Virus record (IMG/VR): IMGVR_UViG_2660238446_000011 | DNA: 32,846 nt | Source of the DNA: a virus | Taxonomy: Duplodnaviria; Heunggongvirae; Uroviricota; Caudoviricetes | Direction: 5' to 3' (one strand) | Shown: one piece after another, positions 12,480 through 22,168 of the stretch | How the letters are laid out: each line of letters opens with the position of its first letter | How positions within the stretch are numbered: position 1 is the first letter of the stretch | The notes under the pieces: model-generated | What the model was told of the DNA's origin: nothing | What the model saw: the letters and a program-made list of their open reading frames with translations, nothing else | The model's database searches: none | Made by a program: the position numbers and the translations under genes

Positions 12480-12512
12480 GATAAGCAGGTGTGCTTGCAC
12501 CTGCTTAATATT
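12480..12512. terminator. hairpin between convergent Q and membrane-protein genes (AAGCAGGTG-tgcttg-CACCTGCTT), possible bidirectional terminator
   Basis: 9-bp perfect stem seen in sequence; flanking U-runs are weak on both strands. Confidence 0.4.
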
Positions 12513-12963
12513 ATATGTGGGGTAATATCCAGTTTATTTTCCTCCAGGTACTTGCAAATGAAACTATTGATACGATCAGGGTCGAGAAACCATATAAGGT
12601 TAGGGCGAAATCAAGTCTTACAGAGGTAATGGTGATTTTTTCATTTATAAACATTGCTATCAGCGGGAAAATACATGCTAATATTAAGGTAACTCCCGTA
12701 GATAACAGGTTATGAATAATTTTAGGTAAAATCTTGTTTTGTTTTAAAGCAAAAATAATTCCATCAGTACTTGAACTTGCAGAACTGAAGATGGAAATAG
12801 CGGCCAATACAAAACCAAACAAAATGCCTGCCACCGTAGATAACACTCCGGCTGTACTTAAGATATCAGAGTGAGCCATAGGCGCTAGGTATTTCCCAAG
12901 CACCCAAGCTAACAGCCCACTGATAACTATGTTAATTAAAACTTTAATAAGCATAATCATCAT
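12511..12963 (-). CDS. small integral membrane protein, four predicted TM helices (150 aa); RexB-like topology
   Basis: Four hydrophobic segments read from the translation (IKVLINIVISGLLAWVL; GVLSTVAGILFGFVLAAISIF; LLSTGVTLILACIFPLIAMFI; FALTLYGFSTLIVSIVSF); appears AT-rich by eye; second gene of a minus-strand pair. Confidence 0.65.
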   Translation of the reverse strand: MMIMLIKVLINIVISGLLAWVLGKYLAPMAHSDILSTAGVLSTVAGILFGFVLAAISIFSSASSSTDGIIFALKQNKILPKIIHNLLSTGVTLILACIFPLIAMFINEKITITSVRLDFALTLYGFSTLIVSIVSFASTWRKINWILPHI

Positions 12964-12977
12964 CCTTAAAAATAAGA

Positions 12978-13910
12978 TCAGATTTCATATTGCTTTAAAT
13001 ACTGACCATGTTCAATTTTAGCACTGATCAAGGCAGTACGCACATCTGTTTCTTTTGCGTAGCCATCTTTTGTGTTAATGTTTTTTTCACTGATCAGAAC
13101 TTGATTGAGAAGACTCCTTGAATGAGTATTTTTAGGTTCAGTGACATTAGCTTTACGTAATAAGTGAGGAACTTTTTCTATTAATTCCTTTATTCCACTT
13201 TTTACTTCATCACTGAGATAACCACGGATTAATTTACGTTGCGATGCTCTACCTCTAAGTGATAGTTTTAAATGCGAACCGCCCATCCCAGCCATCATTT
13301 CAATCATACTTTTGGAAAATGAATTCGAAAGGTCATAATCCGTTGCGCTAAAATTACGTGGAGCGGCGAGTGTAATTTCACAGCTACGTAAAGTGCTTCC
13401 TGTTTCAAGTAGTTCTTTTACACTTTCTTTTTTCCAAATTGCCTCAAACGCTACAGGTTTGTTTTCTTCAGAAAAATTGAATAAAAGAAATGCTAAATCG
13501 GAAACTTTAGGTCCTAAATGATTTTGAGATAAAACAAGAATGTCTTTCTTATAGTAGTAAATAAAATAAGTGCGTTCGACTATATATTTTTTATCATCTA
13601 ACGGAATATTGTGCTCATCCCAATTTTCATCACCAATATAAGGTAAGTGGAAACCATCACGAGAGCATGATAGATAACCAAAATAGAACTCCGCCTGTGC
13701 GTCTTTTTCTAAGAATACAATCTTTAATTTTTTCTTATCAAACTCAGCGGTATAAGAATTTTGCGAAGGTGTAACAATGGTTGTATACATGTTGTCAAAT
13801 GCAAGTTGTGCATTTGATGTAGTTGACTTCGTTCCTGAGGAGCTTTGGAAGAAACCGATACGCATTTTTTTTTGTTTAGTTAGTGGCGCGGAAGTGGCTG
13901 TAGTAGTCAT
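12978..13910 (-). CDS. hypothetical soluble protein (310 aa), first gene of a two-gene cargo operon; RexA-like by size and order only
   Basis: ORF with AAGGG 9 nt upstream of the ATG; 14-nt gap to the downstream membrane gene; Ser/Thr-rich N-terminus; no recognised motif. Confidence 0.6.
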   Translation of the reverse strand: MTTTATSAPLTKQKKMRIGFFQSSSGTKSTTSNAQLAFDNMYTTIVTPSQNSYTAEFDKKKLKIVFLEKDAQAEFYFGYLSCSRDGFHLPYIGDENWDEHNIPLDDKKYIVERTYFIYYYKKDILVLSQNHLGPKVSDLAFLLFNFSEENKPVAFEAIWKKESVKELLETGSTLRSCEITLAAPRNFSATDYDLSNSFSKSMIEMMAGMGGSHLKLSLRGRASQRKLIRGYLSDEVKSGIKELIEKVPHLLRKANVTEPKNTHSRSLLNQVLISEKNINTKDGYAKETDVRTALISAKIEHGQYLKQYEI

Positions 13911-14040
13911 TAAAATTACCCTTTATTATCCTTTTGAATCAATGGGTTGTGATTTGTTAATGATCCTAGGTTCGTTGCATATGCATAATCTATCAAAAAA
14001 AACTTACGCGGTCCGCATATTCTCGTTTACTGTGTTAAGA

Positions 14041-14564: not shown

Positions 14565-15617
14565 ATGAAAAATACTGTAAAAATAAACAGTGTTGATTTA
14601 ATCAACGCTGATTGCCTGCATTTTATTCAGTCCCTGCCTGATGATTCCATTGACCTGATTGTTACCGATCCGCCGTACTTCAAGGTGAAACCCAACGGCT
14701 GGGACAATCAGTGGAAAGGGGACGAAGATTACCTTAAGTGGCTGGACCACTGTCTGGCCCAGTTCTGGCGGGTGTTAAAACCTGCCGGAAGCCTTTACCT
14801 GTTCTGTGGGCATCGCCTGGCATCTGATATTGAGATCATGATGCGTGAACGTTTCAACGTGCTTAACCATATCATCTGGGCGAAGCCGTCCGGACGTTGG
14901 AATGGGTGTAATAAAGAAAGTCTGCGTGCATATTTTCCTGCCACAGAGCGCGTTCTGTTTGCTGAACATTACCAGGGGCCATATCGCGGCAAAAGTGACG
15001 GCTATGCGGCAAAAGAAAGGGAACTCAAACAGCACATAATGGCACCGCTGATTTCGTATTTCAGGGATGCTCGTGCCGAACTGGGTATAACGGCAAAACA
15101 AATTGCCGAAGCCACAGGTAAGAAAAATATGGTTTCCCACTGGTTTGGTGCCAGTCAGTGGCAGTTGCCGAATGAGGCTGACTATCGGAAGTTACAGGCA
15201 CTGTTTTCCCGTATAGCGGCAGAGAAGTTTCAGGAACAACAACTGGAACAACCACACCACCAGCTGGTGGCATCTTATGATTCACTGAATCGCAAATATT
15301 CTGAATTGCTGGATGAGTTTAAATCTCTCCGGCGCTATTTCTCCGTATCAGTCTCCGTGCCTTATACCGATGTCTGGATGCATAAACCCGTTCAGTTCTA
15401 CCCGGGTAAACATCCGTGTGAGAAACCGGCGGATATGCTCAGGCAAATAATCAATGCCAGTAGTCGACCTGGTGATCTGGTTGCTGATTTTTTTATGGGC
15501 TCCGGTTCCACAATAAAAGCAGCAATGGCGTTGGGGCGTCGGGCCTTAGGTGTTGAGCTTGAGTCAGAGCGGTTTAACCAGACAGTGAAAGAGATAAACG
15601 AGCTGGTGGGGAAATAA
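14565..15617 (+). CDS. DNA methyltransferase (N6-adenine or N4-cytosine), DPPY motif, no partner endonuclease in the window
   Basis: [11 protein letters not shown] catalytic motif near the N-terminus and a C-terminal AdoMet-type region ([13 protein letters not shown]) indicate a beta-class amino-MTase. Confidence 0.8.
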
Positions 15618-15684
15618 TCTGGTGGCCACGTCAGGTGGCCTTTTTATTTCCATTACACAGCACCCGCATCTGCGAGGTGGGGTT

Positions 15685-15900
15685 ATGAAATCCATGGATA
15701 AGTTAACAACGGGTGTCGCCTATGGCACCTCAGCAGGTAGTGCCGGGTACTGGTTTTTACAGTTGCTCGATAAAGTCACGCCCTCACAGTGGGCGGCATT
15801 AGGTGTGCTGGGTAGTCTGGTATTTGGCTTGCTGACGTATCTGACAAACCTTTATTTCAAGATTAAAGAAGACAAGCGTAAGGCGGCACGGGGAGAGTAA
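15685..15900 (+). CDS. class II holin (phage 21 S21 pinholin-like) with dual-start MKSM motif
   Basis: [62 protein letters not shown] nearly matches S21 as recalled; track ORF starts further upstream at 15622. Confidence 0.85.
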
Positions 15901-15904
15901 TTCA

Positions 15905-16255
15905 ATGACTCAAAACTATGAACTGATTGTGAAAGGGATCCGCAATTTTGAGAATAAAGTTACGGTAACTTTAGCGTTACGGGACAAAAAACGCTTTGCC
16001 GGTGAAATTTTTGACCTGGACATCTCGCTGGACCGTGTTGAAGGTGCCGCGCTGGAGTTTTATGAGGCAGCAGCCAGAAGGAGCATCAGACAGGTCTTCC
16101 TGGATGTTGCTGCCGGGTTATGTGAAGGGGATGAGCAGTCGCCGGAAAAGCGCCCCGTAATTTTAGAGGCGCAGAATGTATGGATAACCTACAAAGGAAA
16201 GCTACCGGGAAGAATTACTGGTTCTCTGAAGACTCCTCCGGAATCACAACCTTAA
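15905..16255 (+). CDS. hypothetical protein (116 aa) between holin and endolysin
   Basis: ORF packed inside the lysis cassette; no family recognised. Confidence 0.5.
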   Translation: MTQNYELIVKGIRNFENKVTVTLALRDKKRFAGEIFDLDISLDRVEGAALEFYEAAARRSIRQVFLDVAAGLCEGDEQSPEKRPVILEAQNVWITYKGKLPGRITGSLKTPPESQP

Positions 16256-16318
16256 GTCACTGACCGGAACAGATAAACCTGTCCGTGGGCAGAAACCGAT
16301 AAATCCTGATAAATATCC

Positions 16319-16852
16319 ATGAACGCAAAAATCAGATACGGCCTGTCGGCTGCCGTTCTGGCACTGATTGCCGTCGGTGCGCCCGCGCCTGATATTCTCG
16401 ACCAGTTTCTGGATGAAAAAGAAGGTAACCACACAACGGCATACCGCGATGGGTCCGGCATCTGGACCATCTGTCGGGGTGCCACGATGGTGGATGGAAA
16501 ACCCGTTTTTCCCGGTATGAAACTGTCGAAGGAAAAATGCGACCAGGTCAACGCCATTGAGCGTGATAAGGCGCTGACATGGGTGGAGCGCAATATTAAA
16601 GTACCACTGACTGAACCACAGAAAGCGGGTATCGCCTCATTTTGTCCCTATAACATTGGCCCAGGTAAGTGTTTTCCGTCGACATTTTATAAGCGGCTGA
16701 ATGCTGGTGATCGAAAAGGCGCCTGCGAGGCGATTCGCTGGTGGATTAAGGATGGTGGCAGAGACTGCCGTATTCGTTCCAATAGCTGCTTTGGGCAAGT
16801 TTCGCGTCGGGACCAAGAAAGTGTGCTGGCGTGCTGGGGGATAGACCAGTGA
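16319..16852 (+). CDS. SAR endolysin (T4-lysozyme-type muramidase with N-terminal signal-anchor-release domain)
   Basis: N-terminal Gly/Ala-rich weakly hydrophobic segment ([16 protein letters not shown]) followed by an E...D...T catalytic region ([20 protein letters not shown]); pairs with a pinholin as in phage 21. Confidence 0.85.
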
Positions 16853-16857
16853 ATAAC

Positions 16858-17370
16858 ATGTTTGCTAATGCTTGGTTGAAAGTTGCCACGGTTTCGGCTC
16901 TCCTCATTGCCTCATTTGTTGCAGGGAGTGTGTGGACGGAACGAGCATGGGAAAAGAAATGGGCGGATCGTAATAGTGAAGAATCCTCTCAGGCTGTGAA
17001 CGCTCAGATAGCTGCTCGTATGATTGAACAAGGGCGAGTGATCGCTCGTGATGAGGCTGTTAAAAATGCACAAGAACAGGCTGCAAAAGCGGCTGCGAAT
17101 GTTGCTGGCCTGTCTGCCACTGTTAACCAGCTGCGCACCGAAGCAACAAAACTTACCGTCCGCTTGGACGCTGCAAAGCACACCTCAGGTCTTGCCGTTG
17201 CCGTCGGAAGCAAAACAACCGCCACCAACGCCGCGATGCTTGCCGACATGCTCGGAAGTATTGCAGAAGAAGCTAGATACTATGCTGGGCGAGCTGATGA
17301 AAGTTACTTGGCTGGAATGACATGTGAACACATTTACGGCTCAGTGAGGGACTCAAGTAGTGTTAAATAG
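16858..17370 (+). CDS. Rz-like inner-membrane spanin (i-spanin)
   Basis: N-terminal TM segment ([18 protein letters not shown]) followed by an Ala/Gln-rich coiled-coil-like region; Rz1 reading frame embedded; track start 16831 overlaps the endolysin. Confidence 0.75.
17066..17320 (+). CDS. Rz1-like outer-membrane lipoprotein spanin (o-spanin), embedded in the +1 frame of Rz
   Basis: Basic n-region, hydrophobic core and lipobox LLTSC, then a proline-rich mature region ([12 protein letters not shown]...[10 protein letters not shown]); entirely inside the Rz gene. Confidence 0.7.
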
Positions 17371-17558
17371 CTGGTATGATGATGTTGAGAAGGCGGCACA
17401 GCAGGAGCTGTAATCGACGAGTGCTAATCTAGCACAATTGAGTTCACAAATTGTCTACTTTTGCTATATTGCAACCGATGCCAACAGCCTTTTTTGAGCA
17501 AAAATCATAAATGCTATCGTGTTGGCAGTTTTTTTCTTTGACGACACGGAATGATTTT

Positions 17559-17981
17559 ATGTCAGAAGTAGCTGTTGAACTTGAAGAGGATTCTTGGCCT
17601 GACTTTTTCCCGGTTGGAGTACCGCCGAAATCAGCCGTCCCTGCTGAGGGCGAGTTTTTCCGTTTGGTAAGGTCTAATCCACCAACCCCTGCATGTTTCC
17701 TCTCTACACATGAAGAGTATCCGCAGCGGCACAAAAAGTATCGTGGGGAAGCACTTCAGTGTGTCTATGGAACATCATTCTTTTCAGAATCGCGCGGGGC
17801 TACGGATGCAAAAGCTAAATTTCCTGCAGCTCTTGGTCATCGACTCGTTGCTAGTGGTCAGGTCACCCCCGTTTTCGGAGTAATGAAAAAAACATTTGCC
17901 GATCCAGCGCACTACACAATTTGGCTTAAGCGTAATTGTGCTATTCATGAACATTTTCACTGTATAGGAGAAGGCGTATGA
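17559..17981 (+). CDS. hypothetical protein (about 140 aa) with C-terminal Cys/His cluster; first gene of a two-gene cargo module
   Basis: Start at MSEVAVELEED (track ORF begins at 17511); C-terminal CAIHEHFHC cluster; stop overlaps the next start (ATGA). Confidence 0.55.
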   Translation: MSEVAVELEEDSWPDFFPVGVPPKSAVPAEGEFFRLVRSNPPTPACFLSTHEEYPQRHKKYRGEALQCVYGTSFFSESRGATDAKAKFPAALGHRLVASGQVTPVFGVMKKTFADPAHYTIWLKRNCAIHEHFHCIGEGV

Positions 17982-19270
17982 GTAACGTTTTTCTACCTAA
18001 TACAATGATGGGCACTCTATGTTACAAAAGAGTTTATGAGTTCTTCGAAGAGCCTCGCTTCTTTTCAGTTGAAAATGAAGTTAGTACACTTTTTATCGTT
18101 TACTGGATTGGTGAGGATGATGAATGTGATAGTTGGTTTATCATACCAATTTCTCCAGGGCGATTAGAGTTGATTGAAAGAAAAAGAATATGTATCCGTG
18201 ATGCTTTGATTAATCAGGAGCAAAACTTTTTCTATGAAGCCCATATACCATACGATCGTACAGGCAAAGTGACTTGGCTGAGTAAAAACTTGGTTGATAT
18301 ATTTGAAATACCTTTGCCTGTTTCTGAACTATATATAAGTTCGGTAGTTCCAGTAATGCCAAATGGTAAACTAGGCGAGGCTATTACTTACTCAACTCAT
18401 GAGATCCATTTAGAAAAAAGCTCAAAGAAAAGTGCAAAAAATTTGGTTTTAAGTCATGTGTCAAACGTATGCGACAGATTCAGCGATCTTTATGACAGAA
18501 TGCTGGAGATGGCAAAGTGCAAAGATAAATTACGTCCTGTCGATGCGCGGCCTGGTTCCTTTATCATTTCTTTTAAAGCTGAGAAATTACATTCCTTTGA
18601 AGACACTTTTAAAGAATTAAGCAGGCTGATAGAACTTAGAGCTGATATTATTCCTTTTGTTTTCGAAAAGGGTATTGATGTTCCAGCTTTGACAGATCTC
18701 TTACAATCCATAGTTGAAACCGGAACGAATATGGAACTCAAAAGCAACCAGACAGGTGAATTAGCTTTTGTTATTACAAAAGCTGGTGCTGAGTTCTATT
18801 TAAAAAAATTATCACGTCTTTCTACCTCATTGGTTGGAGGGCATCAAATACCTCAAGCAGATGTCCTCGAGACAGTTTATAAATTAGTGGAAATTGTTTG
18901 GAGTGGCGAACCACTTACTCCTATTAATACTGGTTTGCAAGATAGACATATCTACTATTATAAGCATGCAGCTAAAGTTTTGGGATTACTTGATAGCTTT
19001 GGTAATGTCACAACGTCTGGTCAACAACTCGTACAAAGTGATGAGATGACTAGACATAAAATTGCAGCGAGAAAATTTGAAGTGAGTCATGTGGGATGGG
19101 CTTGGATAAATTGGGCCAGTGTTGAACATTTATCCCAAATTGATCCTGACAGCGCTTTAGACTTCCTATTGGAGCAATGCCACTCTTTAAGTCGTGATAC
19201 TATTGAACGACGTGCTACAACTATTAAACACTGGTGCCGTGAATTGAAAAATTATTATACACCTCTGTAA
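17978..19270 (+). CDS. hypothetical protein (430 aa), unknown function; second gene of the cargo module
   Basis: Long ORF that appears AT-rich by eye; translationally coupled to the upstream ORF; followed by an intrinsic terminator; no recognised catalytic motif, but two R-x(5-6)-H patterns near the C-terminus (RKFEVSH, RRATTIKH). Confidence 0.65.
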   Translation: MSNVFLPNTMMGTLCYKRVYEFFEEPRFFSVENEVSTLFIVYWIGEDDECDSWFIIPISPGRLELIERKRICIRDALINQEQNFFYEAHIPYDRTGKVTWLSKNLVDIFEIPLPVSELYISSVVPVMPNGKLGEAITYSTHEIHLEKSSKKSAKNLVLSHVSNVCDRFSDLYDRMLEMAKCKDKLRPVDARPGSFIISFKAEKLHSFEDTFKELSRLIELRADIIPFVFEKGIDVPALTDLLQSIVETGTNMELKSNQTGELAFVITKAGAEFYLKKLSRLSTSLVGGHQIPQADVLETVYKLVEIVWSGEPLTPINTGLQDRHIYYYKHAAKVLGLLDSFGNVTTSGQQLVQSDEMTRHKIAARKFEVSHVGWAWINWASVEHLSQIDPDSALDFLLEQCHSLSRDTIERRATTIKHWCRELKNYYTPL

Positions 19271-19296
19271 AGGATAATTTTCGTAGTTAACAATGA

Positions 19297-19324
19297 ACCA
19301 CTGACGTCTGTCGGTGGTTTTTTA
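19297..19324 (+). terminator. intrinsic terminator after the cargo module (ACCACTGAC-gtct-GTCGGTGGT then TTTTTT)
   Basis: Hairpin with one mismatch followed by a T-run, seen in sequence. Confidence 0.6.
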
Positions 19325-19329
19325 ATAGA

Positions 19330-19574
19330 TAATTTCCCACTTATCCACTTGATTTTTGATGGGTCCTCCAAGTGGGGGGCCTGCCACGGGGCGGGAGCGT
19401 CGCGGAAAAAGGCTAGTTTTTGCATTTTTATCGGCCACCATCATCTTTGCATCTTATTGATTATTAATGGTTATTTGTTTTTTGTATGTCGAATTGAGCG
19501 GTTTTTGTTCGACATCGAACGCGTTTTCTTAAAGTTGTTCGCACGATGCATGTTTAAAGCTCTCCGGAGGAAAT
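19330..19574. other. probable cos / packaging-initiation region upstream of the terminase small subunit
   Basis: Short GC-rich island GGGTCCTCCAAGTGGGGGGCCTGCCACGGGGCGGGAGCGTCGCGG (partly resembles lambda cosN GGGCGGCGACCT as recalled) flanked by AT-rich tracts, directly 5' of the Nu1-like gene. Confidence 0.35.
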
Positions 19575-20066
19575 ATGGATCATGAGTTGAAAAACTTGGT
19601 GCTGAATATTAATCAACTGGCGGCTTTATCTGGTCTGCACCGCCAGACTGTCGTGGCAAGACTGAAAAACATTCGTCCCGCTGGTGGACATGACAAACTC
19701 AAGCTATATCGGTTGACCGATATTCTGACTGAATTTATGGGGTTACCACCGCCGGTTGCTGAGGGCGAAATGGATCCACATGAACGCAAAGCCTGGTATC
19801 AGTCTGAACGTGAGCGTCTTAAGTTCGAACAGGAAACGGCACAACTCATTCCGGCCAGTGATGTCAGACGGGAGTTTGCCATCTGGGCAAAAGCGGTCGT
19901 GCAGGTGCTGGAGACATTACCGGATATTCTGGAACGTGACTGCGGCCTGCAGCCTGCCGCTGTGAGCCGTGTTCAGTCCATTATTGATGATCTGCGCGAT
20001 CAGATAGCCCTGCGGGTGACCGAAGCAGGTGCGGATGATGAGGAGGAATTACAGCAGGAGGAGTAA
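19575..20066 (+). CDS. terminase small subunit (Nu1-like, N-terminal HTH)
   Basis: Position immediately before the large terminase; N-terminal HTH-like LNINQLAALSGLHRQTVVARL; acidic C-terminus. Confidence 0.8.
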   Translation: MDHELKNLVLNINQLAALSGLHRQTVVARLKNIRPAGGHDKLKLYRLTDILTEFMGLPPPVAEGEMDPHERKAWYQSERERLKFEQETAQLIPASDVRREFAIWAKAVVQVLETLPDILERDCGLQPAAVSRVQSIIDDLRDQIALRVTEAGADDEEELQQEE

Positions 20067-22168
20067 TGCTGAATCAGGAAACCGCAAAGGCAGCACGAAC
20101 CGATTCAGGTTATATCCTTCGCGCACCGAGACGAATGCTGGTTGCTGATGCCGTTGCTCAGTATATGCGGGTGCCCATGGGGGCCGGGAATTCAGTCCCG
20201 TGGGATCCGCTGGTGGCACCGTATGTTATTGAGCCGATGAACTGCCTGGCCTCGCGTGAATACGACGCAGTGATATTTGTTGGCCCGGCACGAACTGGCA
20301 AGACTATCGGCCTGATTGACGGCTGGGTGATTTACAATGTGATTTGCGATCCTGCTGATATGCTGATCATTCAGATGACGGAGGAAAAAGCCCGCGAACA
20401 CTCCAAAAAACGACTTGCCAGAACGTTTCGCGTCAGCCCGGAAGTGGTCAGTCGCCTGAGTCCGAACAAAAATGACAACAACGTTTATGACAGAACATTC
20501 CTTGCTGGCAACTACCTGAAAATCGGCTGGCCGTCAGTCAATATCATGTCCTCATCAGATTATAAATGCGTGGCGCTGACGGATTATGACCGTTTTCCGG
20601 AAGATATTGATGGCGAGGGGGATGCCTTCTCTCTTGCCTCAAAACGTACCACCACATTTATGTCCAGTGGTATGACGCTGGTGGAGAGTTCCCCCGGCAG
20701 GGATGTGAAGGATGTGAAATGGCGACGGACTTCACCGCATGAGGCTCCACCAACCACGGGGATACTGTCGCTCTATAACCGTGGCGATCGCCGTCGCTGG
20801 TACTGGCCCTGTCCACACTGTGGTGAGTATTTTCAGCCCTGCGGCGATGTGGTTGCTGGTTTCCGTGATATTGCCGATCCCGTGCTGGCAAGTGAGGCGG
20901 CTTATATTCAGTGTCCTTCCTGTTCAGGACGGATTATGCCTGAACAAAAACGTGAGCTGAACGGACGTGGGGTCTGGTTGCGGGATGGTGAATCCATCAA
21001 TGCGGATGGCAGTCGTTATGGTGATCCCCGACGCTCACGTATTGCGTCATTCTGGATGGAGGGTCCGGCAGCTGCTTACCAGACACTCTCGCAACTCGTT
21101 TACAAACTGCTTACTGCAGAACAGGAATACGAGACAACCGGAAGTGAAGAAACACTCAAGACGGTTATCAATACCGACTGGGGATTACCTTATCTTCCCC
21201 GTGCCAGCATGGAGCAACGAAAAAGTGAACTGCTTGAGCAGCGGGCAGAGCCAGTTCCTTCCCGCAGTGTGCCGGATGGCGTTAATTTCCTGGTGGCGAC
21301 AGTTGATGTGCAGGCGGGACGTCATCGCCGTTTTGTGGTTCAGGTAACGGGCTATGGCAGCCGTGGCGAACGCTGGATTATTGATCGTTACAACATCACG
21401 CAGTCATTGCGCGGTGACAGCGACGGGGAGAGCCAGCGAATTGATCCGGCCAGCTATCCGGAAGACTGGGATGTCCTGCTGACGGATGTTTTTCATAAAA
21501 GCTGGCCGCTGGCCTCCGATCCTTCTCAACAAATGCGACTGATGGCAATGGCGGTGGACTCCGGCGGTGAAGACGGGGTCACTGATAATGCCTATAAATT
21601 CTGGCGTCGTTGCCGTCGTGATGGCCTTGGTAAACGTATTTACCTGTTTAAGGGCGACAGCATCCGGCGCGCAAAACTGATCACCCGTACATTCCCTGAT
21701 AACACCGGACGAACGGGCCGACGGGCGCAGGCCGCAGGTGATGTGCCGCTCTGGCTTCTTCAGACGGATGCACTGAAAGACCGGGTGAATAACGCGTTAT
21801 GGCGTGACTCGCCAGGTCCCGGCTATGTGCATTTCCCTGACTGGCTGGGGAGCTGGTTTTACGACGAACTGACGTATGAAGAGCGGAGCAGTGACGGGAA
21901 ATGGAGTAAGCCGGGTCGCGGTGCCAACGAAGCTTTTGACCTGATGGTGTATGCCGAGGCTCTGGTCATTCTGCATGGATACGAAAAGATCCGCTGGCCG
22001 GATGCACCGGAGTGGGCGAGCCGGGAAACCTGGCTGGAGTGTGTCCAGGACAGTACCGAACCGTCATCCTCACCGGAACCGGTATCCACGCCTGTTAAAA
22101 AACAAAAACGGAAGAAAACAGTAACTGATGATGTTAACCCCTGGCTGACTTCCGGAGGATGGTTATGA
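20066..22168 (+). CDS. terminase large subunit (lambda gpA-like)
   Basis: 700 aa; WYWPCPHCGEYFQPCGD parallels the lambda gpA segment ACPHCGEEQYLKFGD as recalled; followed by W-like and portal genes. Confidence 0.9.
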   Translation: MLNQETAKAARTDSGYILRAPRRMLVADAVAQYMRVPMGAGNSVPWDPLVAPYVIEPMNCLASREYDAVIFVGPARTGKTIGLIDGWVIYNVICDPADMLIIQMTEEKAREHSKKRLARTFRVSPEVVSRLSPNKNDNNVYDRTFLAGNYLKIGWPSVNIMSSSDYKCVALTDYDRFPEDIDGEGDAFSLASKRTTTFMSSGMTLVESSPGRDVKDVKWRRTSPHEAPPTTGILSLYNRGDRRRWYWPCPHCGEYFQPCGDVVAGFRDIADPVLASEAAYIQCPSCSGRIMPEQKRELNGRGVWLRDGESINADGSRYGDPRRSRIASFWMEGPAAAYQTLSQLVYKLLTAEQEYETTGSEETLKTVINTDWGLPYLPRASMEQRKSELLEQRAEPVPSRSVPDGVNFLVATVDVQAGRHRRFVVQVTGYGSRGERWIIDRYNITQSLRGDSDGESQRIDPASYPEDWDVLLTDVFHKSWPLASDPSQQMRLMAMAVDSGGEDGVTDNAYKFWRRCRRDGLGKRIYLFKGDSIRRAKLITRTFPDNTGRTGRRAQAAGDVPLWLLQTDALKDRVNNALWRDSPGPGYVHFPDWLGSWFYDELTYEERSSDGKWSKPGRGANEAFDLMVYAEALVILHGYEKIRWPDAPEWASRETWLECVQDSTEPSSSPEPVSTPVKKQKRKKTVTDDVNPWLTSGGWL

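Follow-up and report, generated by a model that had tools for sequence, protein, structure and literature searches.

PD-T4-10, a defence system of Escherichia coli ECOR65 (proteins RCO36089.1 and RCO36088.1; QOYX01000006 196254-197857), consists of two overlapping open reading frames (ORFs). The product of B is toxic and is neutralised by A, a gene that cannot be deleted. Together they confer protection against T-even phages via abortive infection, and neither protein had a predicted function (Vassallo 2022, PMC9519451). In a 2024 survey its genes were still described as being of unknown function; the family, experimentally validated in E. coli, is mechanistically unexplained. Here we analysed the IMG/VR record IMGVR_UViG_2660238446_000011, a stretch of 32,846 nucleotides (hereafter the window, meaning this whole stretch) from an E. 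coli lambdoid prophage, whose integration site adjoins proA and tRNA-Thr. The window carries a two-gene module, which is most likely a remote relative or an architectural variant of PD-T4-10 rather than an entirely unknown system. The two genes are:

17559..17981, plus strand: gene A, 140 amino acids (aa), a putative antitoxin or regulator, similar to PD-T4-10_A and with a predicted ADP-ribosyltransferase (ART)-like fold
17978..19270, plus strand: gene B, 430 aa

The genes share an ATGA stop/start overlap of 4 nt, and the translational coupling read from it in an initial annotation of the window stands. Both ORFs are also called by RefSeq (A as WP_000005499.1, “hypothetical protein”, and B as WP_000072969.1, “DUF6575 domain-containing protein”). 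The same annotation had considered the pair unannotatable and a candidate for an undescribed system. These two labels have to be given up, because B is a member of the Pfam family DUF6575, and both proteins match PADLOC models of the validated PD-T4-10. Against DUF6575 (PF20215), B scored 129.3 bits (E 1.8e-37, cut-off 26.6), with residues 3-221 covering positions 2-214 of the 218 in the profile. Its C-terminus, residues 319-420, reached 22.8 bits against DUF7226 (PF23871), below the curated cut-off of 27. The homologous C-termini of relatives pass this cut-off (34 bits), and 53 of 75 relatives match at E <= 1e-3. Both DUF6575 and DUF7226 are families of unknown function, and therefore membership gives B a name and no mechanism. 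Searches for A and B in PHROGs and NCBIfam returned no match, and sequence searches of the PDB with the two family profiles returned nothing meaningful.

In PADLOC, each protein matched a single model, in the gene order of PD-T4-10, and no other defence model was matched. A matched PD-T4-10_A over nearly its full length (E 1.1e-5, a weak 23 bits), a score that points to remote homology rather than to membership. B matched PD-T4-10_B (E 2.8e-4, a weak 18 bits) with residues 32-89 only, corresponding to positions 35-92 of the 353 in the profile. The same assignment was obtained for the relatives: all 14 further A proteins tested matched PD-T4-10_A (best 2.9e-10), and 12 of 19 further B-type proteins matched PD-T4-10_B, down to 7e-14. 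Those that keep the N-terminal domain all did so, except for a protein from Oscillatoria. The matches are in register and confined to the first ~130 positions of the 353, reaching at most ~146 in relatives. A physical link between the two subfamilies was observed in a 559-aa protein, P0118, which has two N-domains in tandem. Its first 130 residues are of the true PD-T4-10B type (1.9e-41 against PD-T4-10_B) and the second N-domain is of the DUF6575/DUF7226 architecture. When the B family profile was aligned by hhalign to the PD-T4-10B-type N-domain of P0118, the two matched with a probability of 90.6% (E 1.3e-6). Another protein, P0203 (529 aa), carries a DUF6575 N-domain followed by a C-terminus matching PDC-M63B, a protein of a PADLOC candidate system (6.8e-12); judged from these matches, it represents a further effector or sensor swap on the same N-domain.

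Overall, the module and PD-T4-10 (PADLOC PDLC04023/04024/04026) are alike in having co-oriented, overlapping genes with the small A first, in an A protein remotely homologous over its full length, in the N-terminal beta-rich domain of B, in their location on mobile elements and presumably in a toxin-antitoxin (TA)-like logic of abortive infection (Abi). They differ in the ~300 remaining residues of the window B, a middle region and a DUF7226-like helix-turn-helix (HTH) module, which the profile leaves unmatched, and the score of the window B (2.8e-4) is far below that of the PD-T4-10B-type N-domain (1.9e-41). Because only the first ~60 residues of B, or ~130 in relatives, match PD-T4-10_B, we regard the architecture as different, and because of this low coverage of B we do not file the module as a member of PD-T4-10. 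This comparison was made against the PADLOC models and a PD-T4-10B-type N-domain. Among the PADLOC-scanned proteins, none scored as a full-length PD-T4-10 member, the closest being residues 1-130 of P0118. Standard defence finders would probably miss the module. DUF6575 has been listed among the domains new to defence, in a text that does not state which of the 21 systems carries it (PMC9519451); from the similarities above, we infer that the carrier is PD-T4-10B.

The association between the two genes is strict. In the first 31 loci, examined by tblastn, an A homologue lies directly upstream of every B that is full-length or consists of the N-domain only. In the IMG/VR loci this is the case for 50 of 51 B genes, and the usual junction is the same 4-nt overlap. 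In the remaining locus, L045, the search upstream of B, where 586 nt of space are present, gave no homologue spanning half of A or more; A may be frameshifted or divergent there. A plasmid protein from Oscillatoria combines the N-terminal domain of B with a different C-terminus and still has an A-like gene upstream. Loci with the middle and C-terminal part of B alone, encoding a 562-aa Haliangium protein and a small fragment on a Salmonella plasmid, lack A. Therefore, A travels with the N-terminal domain of B and not with the rest of the protein.

Within the window, the pair follows Rz and precedes terS/terL, and thus lies between the lysis genes and the terminase, as initially annotated:

14565-15617: DNA methyltransferase gene
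15622-17370: holin, lysozyme and Rz genes, with Rz at 16831-17370
between Rz and ORF A, 188 nt: leader of the module
19575-22168: terS and terL

From about position 19357 onward, homology to ordinary, cassette-free lambdoid prophages resumes. The large gene had been judged AT-rich by eye, and the computed values agree: the GC content is 37.0% for B, 47.3% for A and 40.4% for the leader, compared to 50-54% for the flanks. The GC content at third codon positions is 0.29 in B versus 0.54 in terL, and among segments of 1293 nt the GC content of B has a z of -2.4.

Exact copies of the module (>=99% identity) are present in 8 of 5426 complete E. coli genomes, always on the chromosome and invariably flanked by Rz and terS. 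The prophages that carry them are of at least two different backgrounds, and both ORFs are intact in all copies. A sibling prophage at the same attachment site has an unrelated minus-strand gene in this slot. In locus L031 (E. coli EC09, the same prophage family) the slot holds a minus-strand gene at 18453-19145, coding for a hypothetical protein of 230 aa with no PADLOC match, and the slot is therefore a point of cargo exchange. In another prophage, the terS flank of which is 99.5% identical, the slot contains no annotated gene. Neither megablast nor tblastn matched the cassette in a collection of cultured phages. One contig with a 100% identical B and a 99% identical A (97% at the nucleotide level), JAEWTL010000010.1 (L010), is labelled “MAG: Bacillota bacterium”. 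It is flanked by lambdoid genes of the E. coli type and is probably a mis-binned enterobacterial prophage contig, not Bacillota.

Homologues of B of ~430 aa, 38-95% identical, were found in Enterobacterales, Vibrio and Psychromonas, and remoter full-length relatives (29%) in Photobacterium and Vibrio splendidus. The initial annotation had proposed to look for homologous pairs at variable positions in other prophages, and such pairs were indeed found, the A/B pair recurring at about 80 loci in the following settings:

E. coli and Serratia: between the antiterminator Q (or NinG) and holin genes
E. coli, Kluyvera, Enterobacter and Proteus: between the lysis genes and the small terminase, in phages with different types of head genes
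Lelliottia: in a P2-like prophage, between the replication gene gpA and the portal gene
Vibrio cholerae: adjoining a prophage integrase
Pantoea: in a relaxase-bearing mobilisable island, beside an Mrr_cat/NA-iREase1 enzyme, a large DUF4011/AAA_11/AAA_12 helicase and an AAA_15/21 ATPase

A rough sorting of the 51 IMG/VR loci placed 20 between Q (or the gene just after it) and lysis, 18 between lysis and terminase, and five between gpA and portal of P2. The gpA-portal position is P2 defence hotspot #1, the home of tin and old (Vassallo et al.). The A/B pair is thus a mobile cargo cassette, or moron, which moves as a unit between slots. It resembles the morons of lambdoid and P2 phages (lambda bor, the stx position after Q, the tin/old slot of P2) in position, in the anatomy of promoter, genes and terminator, and in the deviating GC content. 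Its cargo differs from theirs, and the likeness is one of location and cassette packaging, not of function. In the Lelliottia P2-like hotspot, the pair is followed by a gene for 387 aa without a Pfam match (L034 7343-8506 and L035 1992-3155), which may belong to the system as its third component or be cargo of its own. Further genes of defence type occupy neighbouring cargo slots of prophages with A/B homologues, namely an RVT_1 reverse transcriptase in Enterobacter (L032 1430-2917), a gene with an SduA_C (Shedu-type) domain in V. cholerae (L026 15163-15293) and an OLD-like TOPRIM gene in Proteus (L024 3275-3973).

The cassette appears to have its own regulatory elements:

17443..17470, plus strand: promoter-like site, with a -35 TTCACA (17443-17448), a spacer of 16 nt and an extended -10 TGcTATATT (17462-17470)
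17479..17535, plus strand: leader element, with the arms TGCCAACA (17479-17486) and TGTTGGCA (17520-17527), a variable spacer of 33 nt and a run of seven Ts (17529-17535)
19295-19320, plus strand: terminator-like hairpin of 11 pairs with a 4-nt loop, followed by a T-run to 19323

The promoter-like site, the activity of which is predicted from a consensus scan, matches 10 of 12 consensus positions, plus the TG. Across five aligned leaders, taken from E. coli, Kluyvera, Raoultella and Enterobacter, neither TTCACA nor TGCTATATT varies, while the surrounding leader has diverged. An extended -10 TGnTATATT occurs 70-97 nt 5' of the start of A in 11 distinct cassette types. The start of A at 17559 and the GGAA upstream of it are kept in the five aligned leaders, which come from four genera; an alternative, longer ATG for A, at 17511, lies within the leader hairpin.

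We compared the leader element in the window (17443-17535) with the leaders of loci L003, L011-L015, L032 and L036. The shared cis-element consists of GATGCCAA 9-12 nt after the extended -10, followed by N26-37, TTGGCAG and a T-run. The core arms TGCCAA/TTGGCA and the T-run are kept in nine cassettes, whose A proteins are just 42-50% identical to that of the window. The hairpin initially annotated here is present and its arms are conserved in divergent cassettes, but folded as a single sequence it is no better than shuffled versions (z = -1.5). Covariation between the arms was sought and not found (term -0.09), and because the arms are nearly invariant, it offers no means to tell an RNA stem from an inverted repeat in the DNA. 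The element could be either an RNA 5' stem-loop or attenuator, or a DNA operator. The former would be favoured by the spacer being variable, by the T-run, and by hairpins that differ in sequence but occupy this position in the leaders of the Proteus and Vibrio cassettes, whereas the conservation of sequence instead of pairing would favour recognition by a protein, for which the HTH module of B is the obvious candidate.

An intrinsic terminator had also been claimed, and this held up. The hairpin downstream of B has a dG of -16 kcal/mol and a z of -2.9, and only one of 200 shuffles folds equally well; it was absent from the output of a simple consensus scan. In most of the other lambdoid copies examined, B is followed by a terminator-like hairpin of unrelated sequence. 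The predicted promoter, coupled genes, terminator and foreign GC content are classic moron anatomy. The features of a Hendrix-type moron were all found, namely a predicted promoter, a terminator, a GC content of 37-47% compared to 50-54%, and presence/absence polymorphism. The description of the pair as a self-contained cargo unit is therefore well founded, given its conserved promoter-like site, its terminator, its foreign base composition and the variable slot.

Protein B was modelled by AF2 from 22 sequences with a pLDDT of 89, and can be divided into three parts:

17978..18397, plus strand (residues 1-140): beta-rich N-domain, the first half of DUF6575, shared with PD-T4-10B
18398..18832, plus strand (residues 141-285): middle alpha/beta region, confidently modelled, of a fold that was not recognised
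18833..19270, plus strand (residues 286-430 and stop): DUF7226-like, bi-lobed HTH module, predicted to bind DNA

Invariant residues in the middle region are T140-H141-E142 and R191-P-G-S-F195 (alignment A1), and in the C-terminal part Q290-x-P-Q-A, R323...Y327-Y328-x-H-A, W374-A-W376 and R411-R412. For the middle region, the PDB gave no sequence match and no fold match ranking above the winged-helix ones. The modelled C-terminal fold matched winged-helix regulators over 60-75 residues, as well as FokI/BrxA-like DNA binders, among them the recognition domains of FokI and N.BspD6I, both of which are type IIS enzymes. A bi-lobed module with two HTHs is a mode of DNA recognition common to FokI, BpuJI and BrxA, and BrxA binds dsDNA (PMC9240713). 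BrxA of the bacteriophage exclusion system BREX and the FokI/BpuJI/N.BspD6I domains have no sequence similarity to B (8-13% identity), and DNA binding by B is predicted from the fold. Unlike BrxA and the type IIS enzymes, B is not associated with nuclease, methylase or BREX genes. The DUF7226 module is widespread, an exhaustive profile search retrieving 1871 cluster representatives at E <= 1e-3, of which the full 430-aa architecture is one group. In others, the C-terminal part, by itself or joined to the middle part, follows a different N-terminus or forms a standalone protein. Among the 75 relatives there are single fusions to pentapeptide repeats, to a ParA-like ATPase and to an HNH domain, the last on a DUF7226-like domain.

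Two R-x-H patterns near the C-terminus of B (RKFEVSH and RRATTIKH) had been put forward as possible HEPN RNase motifs. Their histidines are not conserved, since some homologues have Y, A or P in place of H371, and H418 is replaced by K, R, S, Q or N, and the predicted fold is of the winged-helix/FokI/BrxA type, not HEPN. Both conservation and fold thus rule out B as a HEPN RNase.

The predicted core of A resembles ART folds in a fold comparison, among them scabin, Tne2, heat-labile enterotoxin, MbcT, DarT, ParT and AcrF11. A Foldseek search of the PDB with the model of A found nothing significant, with cholera and pertussis toxins and a RES toxin among the weak matches. Pfam searches with 31 A-family members gave scattered noise only at E <= 10, and neither Pfam nor PDB profile searches linked A to any ART family at the sequence level. 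Invariant in the A family, at places that correspond to those of ART motifs, are R35 in strand 1 (F/Y-R-L), S73 in strand 2 (G-T-S-F) and H118-x-T120-x-W122 in strand 5. From their strand positions in the model, R35, S73, H118 and T120 would cluster in a pocket. The Arg-Ser-strand 5 spacings in A are 38 and 45 residues, similar to those of small R-S-E enzymes such as cholera toxin and scabin. R-S-E enzymes carry Q/E-x-E in strand 5, where A has His-x-Thr. The predicted core of A would be like that of RES/Xre-RES, ParT, MbcT, DarT, Tpt1/KptA, the pertussis/cholera-type toxins and AcrF11, but unlike ART enzymes A has His118-x-Thr120 instead of a conserved catalytic Glu. Furthermore, in systems with an ART fold the ART protein is the toxin, whereas the PD-T4-10 homologue of A is the neutralising partner. 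The Cys/His cluster at the end of A (CAIHEHFHC), taken initially as a possible metal site, is not conserved across the 31 sequences. Only H130 is nearly invariant, while C127, H132, H134 and C135 vary, so that a zinc- or metal-binding cluster can be ruled out.

We consider it reasonably probable that the module is a prophage-borne, TA-like abortive-infection cassette, a remote variant of PD-T4-10, which guards the lysogen against other phages. The toxicity of B, its neutralisation by A and abortive infection directed at T-even phages would carry over from PD-T4-10 by homology, while the trigger, target and chemistry proposed here are inferred. What the present analysis shows is the anatomy, the homologies, the fold similarities, the strict pairing of A with B and the movement between cargo slots. 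In the lysogen, the cassette would be transcribed from its own promoter, at a level that the TGCCAA...TTGGCA element would hold down, acting as a 5' stem/attenuator or else as an operator for B. A would hold B inactive through the N-terminal DUF6575 domain, the sole part of B that always occurs with A, and their strict linkage suggests that A acts on this domain. Because the Arg and Ser of the NAD pocket are kept but His-x-Thr replaces Gln/Glu-x-Glu, A may be either a pseudo-enzyme that only binds, or an enzyme that uses NAD to modify B in a non-canonical manner. When another phage infects the cell, the A:B balance would be upset, and the freed B would engage DNA through its FokI/BrxA-like two-HTH module; the presence of this C-terminal module suggests DNA as the target or signal of B. 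Growth of the infected cell would then halt before the invader finishes its cycle. The initial annotation had also named a defence system as one candidate. Its claim that the system is undescribed fell, as set out above, while defence is the best reading of the recurrence of the pair at variable prophage and island positions, including the P2 hotspot.

Several points weigh against this reading. The module is known from its sequence and from predictions. The PADLOC matches of the window proteins are weak, at 23 and 18 bits, and the likeness was judged on PADLOC models rather than on the PD-T4-10 proteins directly. Because the match of B covers ~60 of 353 positions, the toxic part may not be shared and the roles may not transfer. 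No Glu or Asp is invariant in the 31 A sequences, leaving the catalytic triad incomplete, and canonical ADP-ribosyl transfer by A is therefore doubtful. In B, neither an enzymatic fold nor an enzymatic motif was recognised by the Pfam, PADLOC, fold and PDB searches, and with a pI of 6.2 its C-terminal domain is not basic. Finally, because the cassette lies inside the Q-dependent late operon, it would also be transcribed during lytic growth.

A bolder version of the same idea, which we put forward tentatively and regard as rather unlikely, would make A an active non-canonical NAD-dependent enzyme built on Arg-Ser-His/Thr in place of Arg-Ser-Glu. It would silence B by covalently modifying its N-domain, or be given a nucleic-acid target by B, and the two HTHs of the DUF7226 module would act as sensor or effector of phage DNA. 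If true, A would be an enzymatic, type VII-like “ADP-ribosylating antitoxin”. The whole PD-T4-10/DUF6575 clade would thereby gain a mechanism, and the switch would represent a new, NAD-linked class in abortive infection.

The TA-like layout, in which the upstream gene is small, the genes overlap by 4 nt and the leader has a possibly autoregulatory repeat, would also fit a selfish addiction module, which stabilises the prophage or island by post-segregational killing without any benefit in phage defence. The module being always on mobile elements would agree with this. The sole characterised relative gives strong Abi defence, however, and the preferred sites are prophage cargo slots and defence hotspots, not maintenance regions, and we consider addiction as such to be an unlikely explanation.

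Direct immunity rather than Abi would result if B were a restriction-like effector, recognising DNA via its FokI-like module and cutting or blocking it with a catalytic domain that was not recognised, in which T-H-E-x-H and RPGSF would be the catalytic motifs; A would then be an immunity or self-marking factor. The resemblance of the C-terminus of B to the recognition domains of FokI and N.BspD6I, the relative with an HNH fused to a DUF7226-like domain, the invariant His and Glu in the middle domain of B, and a marginal match of a Photobacterium homologue to the PADLOC model REase_II (E 0.009) all point in this direction. We nevertheless regard such an effector as improbable.

Equally doubtful is a lytic-cycle accessory or counter-defence pair, in which an ART-like A would modify a host or defence protein, comparable to AcrF11 or T4 Alt/Mod, with B as a DNA-binding helper and both genes expressed together with the late genes, benefiting the replication of the carrier phage itself. 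However, a conserved promoter-like site and a terminator belong to the cassette itself, which is also found in the P2 defence hotspot and, outside phages, in a mobilisable island among genes of restriction type. Furthermore, both proteins are homologous to a proven host-defence system, and the collection of cultured phage genomes contains no carrier of the cassette. That the module is decaying or functionless hitch-hiking cargo, as its rarity (8 of 5426 genomes) might suggest, is very improbable, since purifying selection and conserved regulatory elements argue strongly against it, the ORFs being intact in all copies. In homologues of 38-93% identity from Enterobacterales, Vibrio and Psychromonas, the overlap of the genes and the leader elements are retained, as are dozens of invariant residues.

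The module shows that the A family of PD-T4-10 and the N-domain of B make up a conserved core, to which different C-terminal modules are joined, here a FokI/BrxA-type predicted DNA-recognition domain that is also widespread on its own. If the abortive-infection cassette is confirmed, it would add a subtype which current defence-finder profiles probably overlook. Furthermore, a single mobile defence cassette would tie together three classic prophage cargo slots, Q-holin, lysis-terminase and P2 gpA-portal. Three results are probably new, as far as predictions go: that the antitoxin family has an ART-like fold, that B is split into modules, and that the leader contains a conserved element. Two leads can be tested, the ART-like neutralising partner A and the promoter-proximal TGCCAA...TTGGCA common to the cassettes.

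Two further observations concern other parts of the window. A +1-frame ORF embedded in Rz (17048-17320) has a lipobox-like signal typical of the o-spanin Rz1, which fits the label “spanins” given initially to the genes preceding the module. A second island of low GC content (0.34-0.36, the minimum of the window) lies at 12500-14000, between the antiterminator Q and the methyltransferase, and is probably another slot for cargo or defence candidates. Its two minus-strand ORFs, 12511-12963 (150 aa) and 12978-13910 (310 aa), have no PADLOC match; in a sibling prophage they are labelled “hypothetical” and “DUF6731 family protein”, and another related prophage has a gene with an NYN domain at this place.

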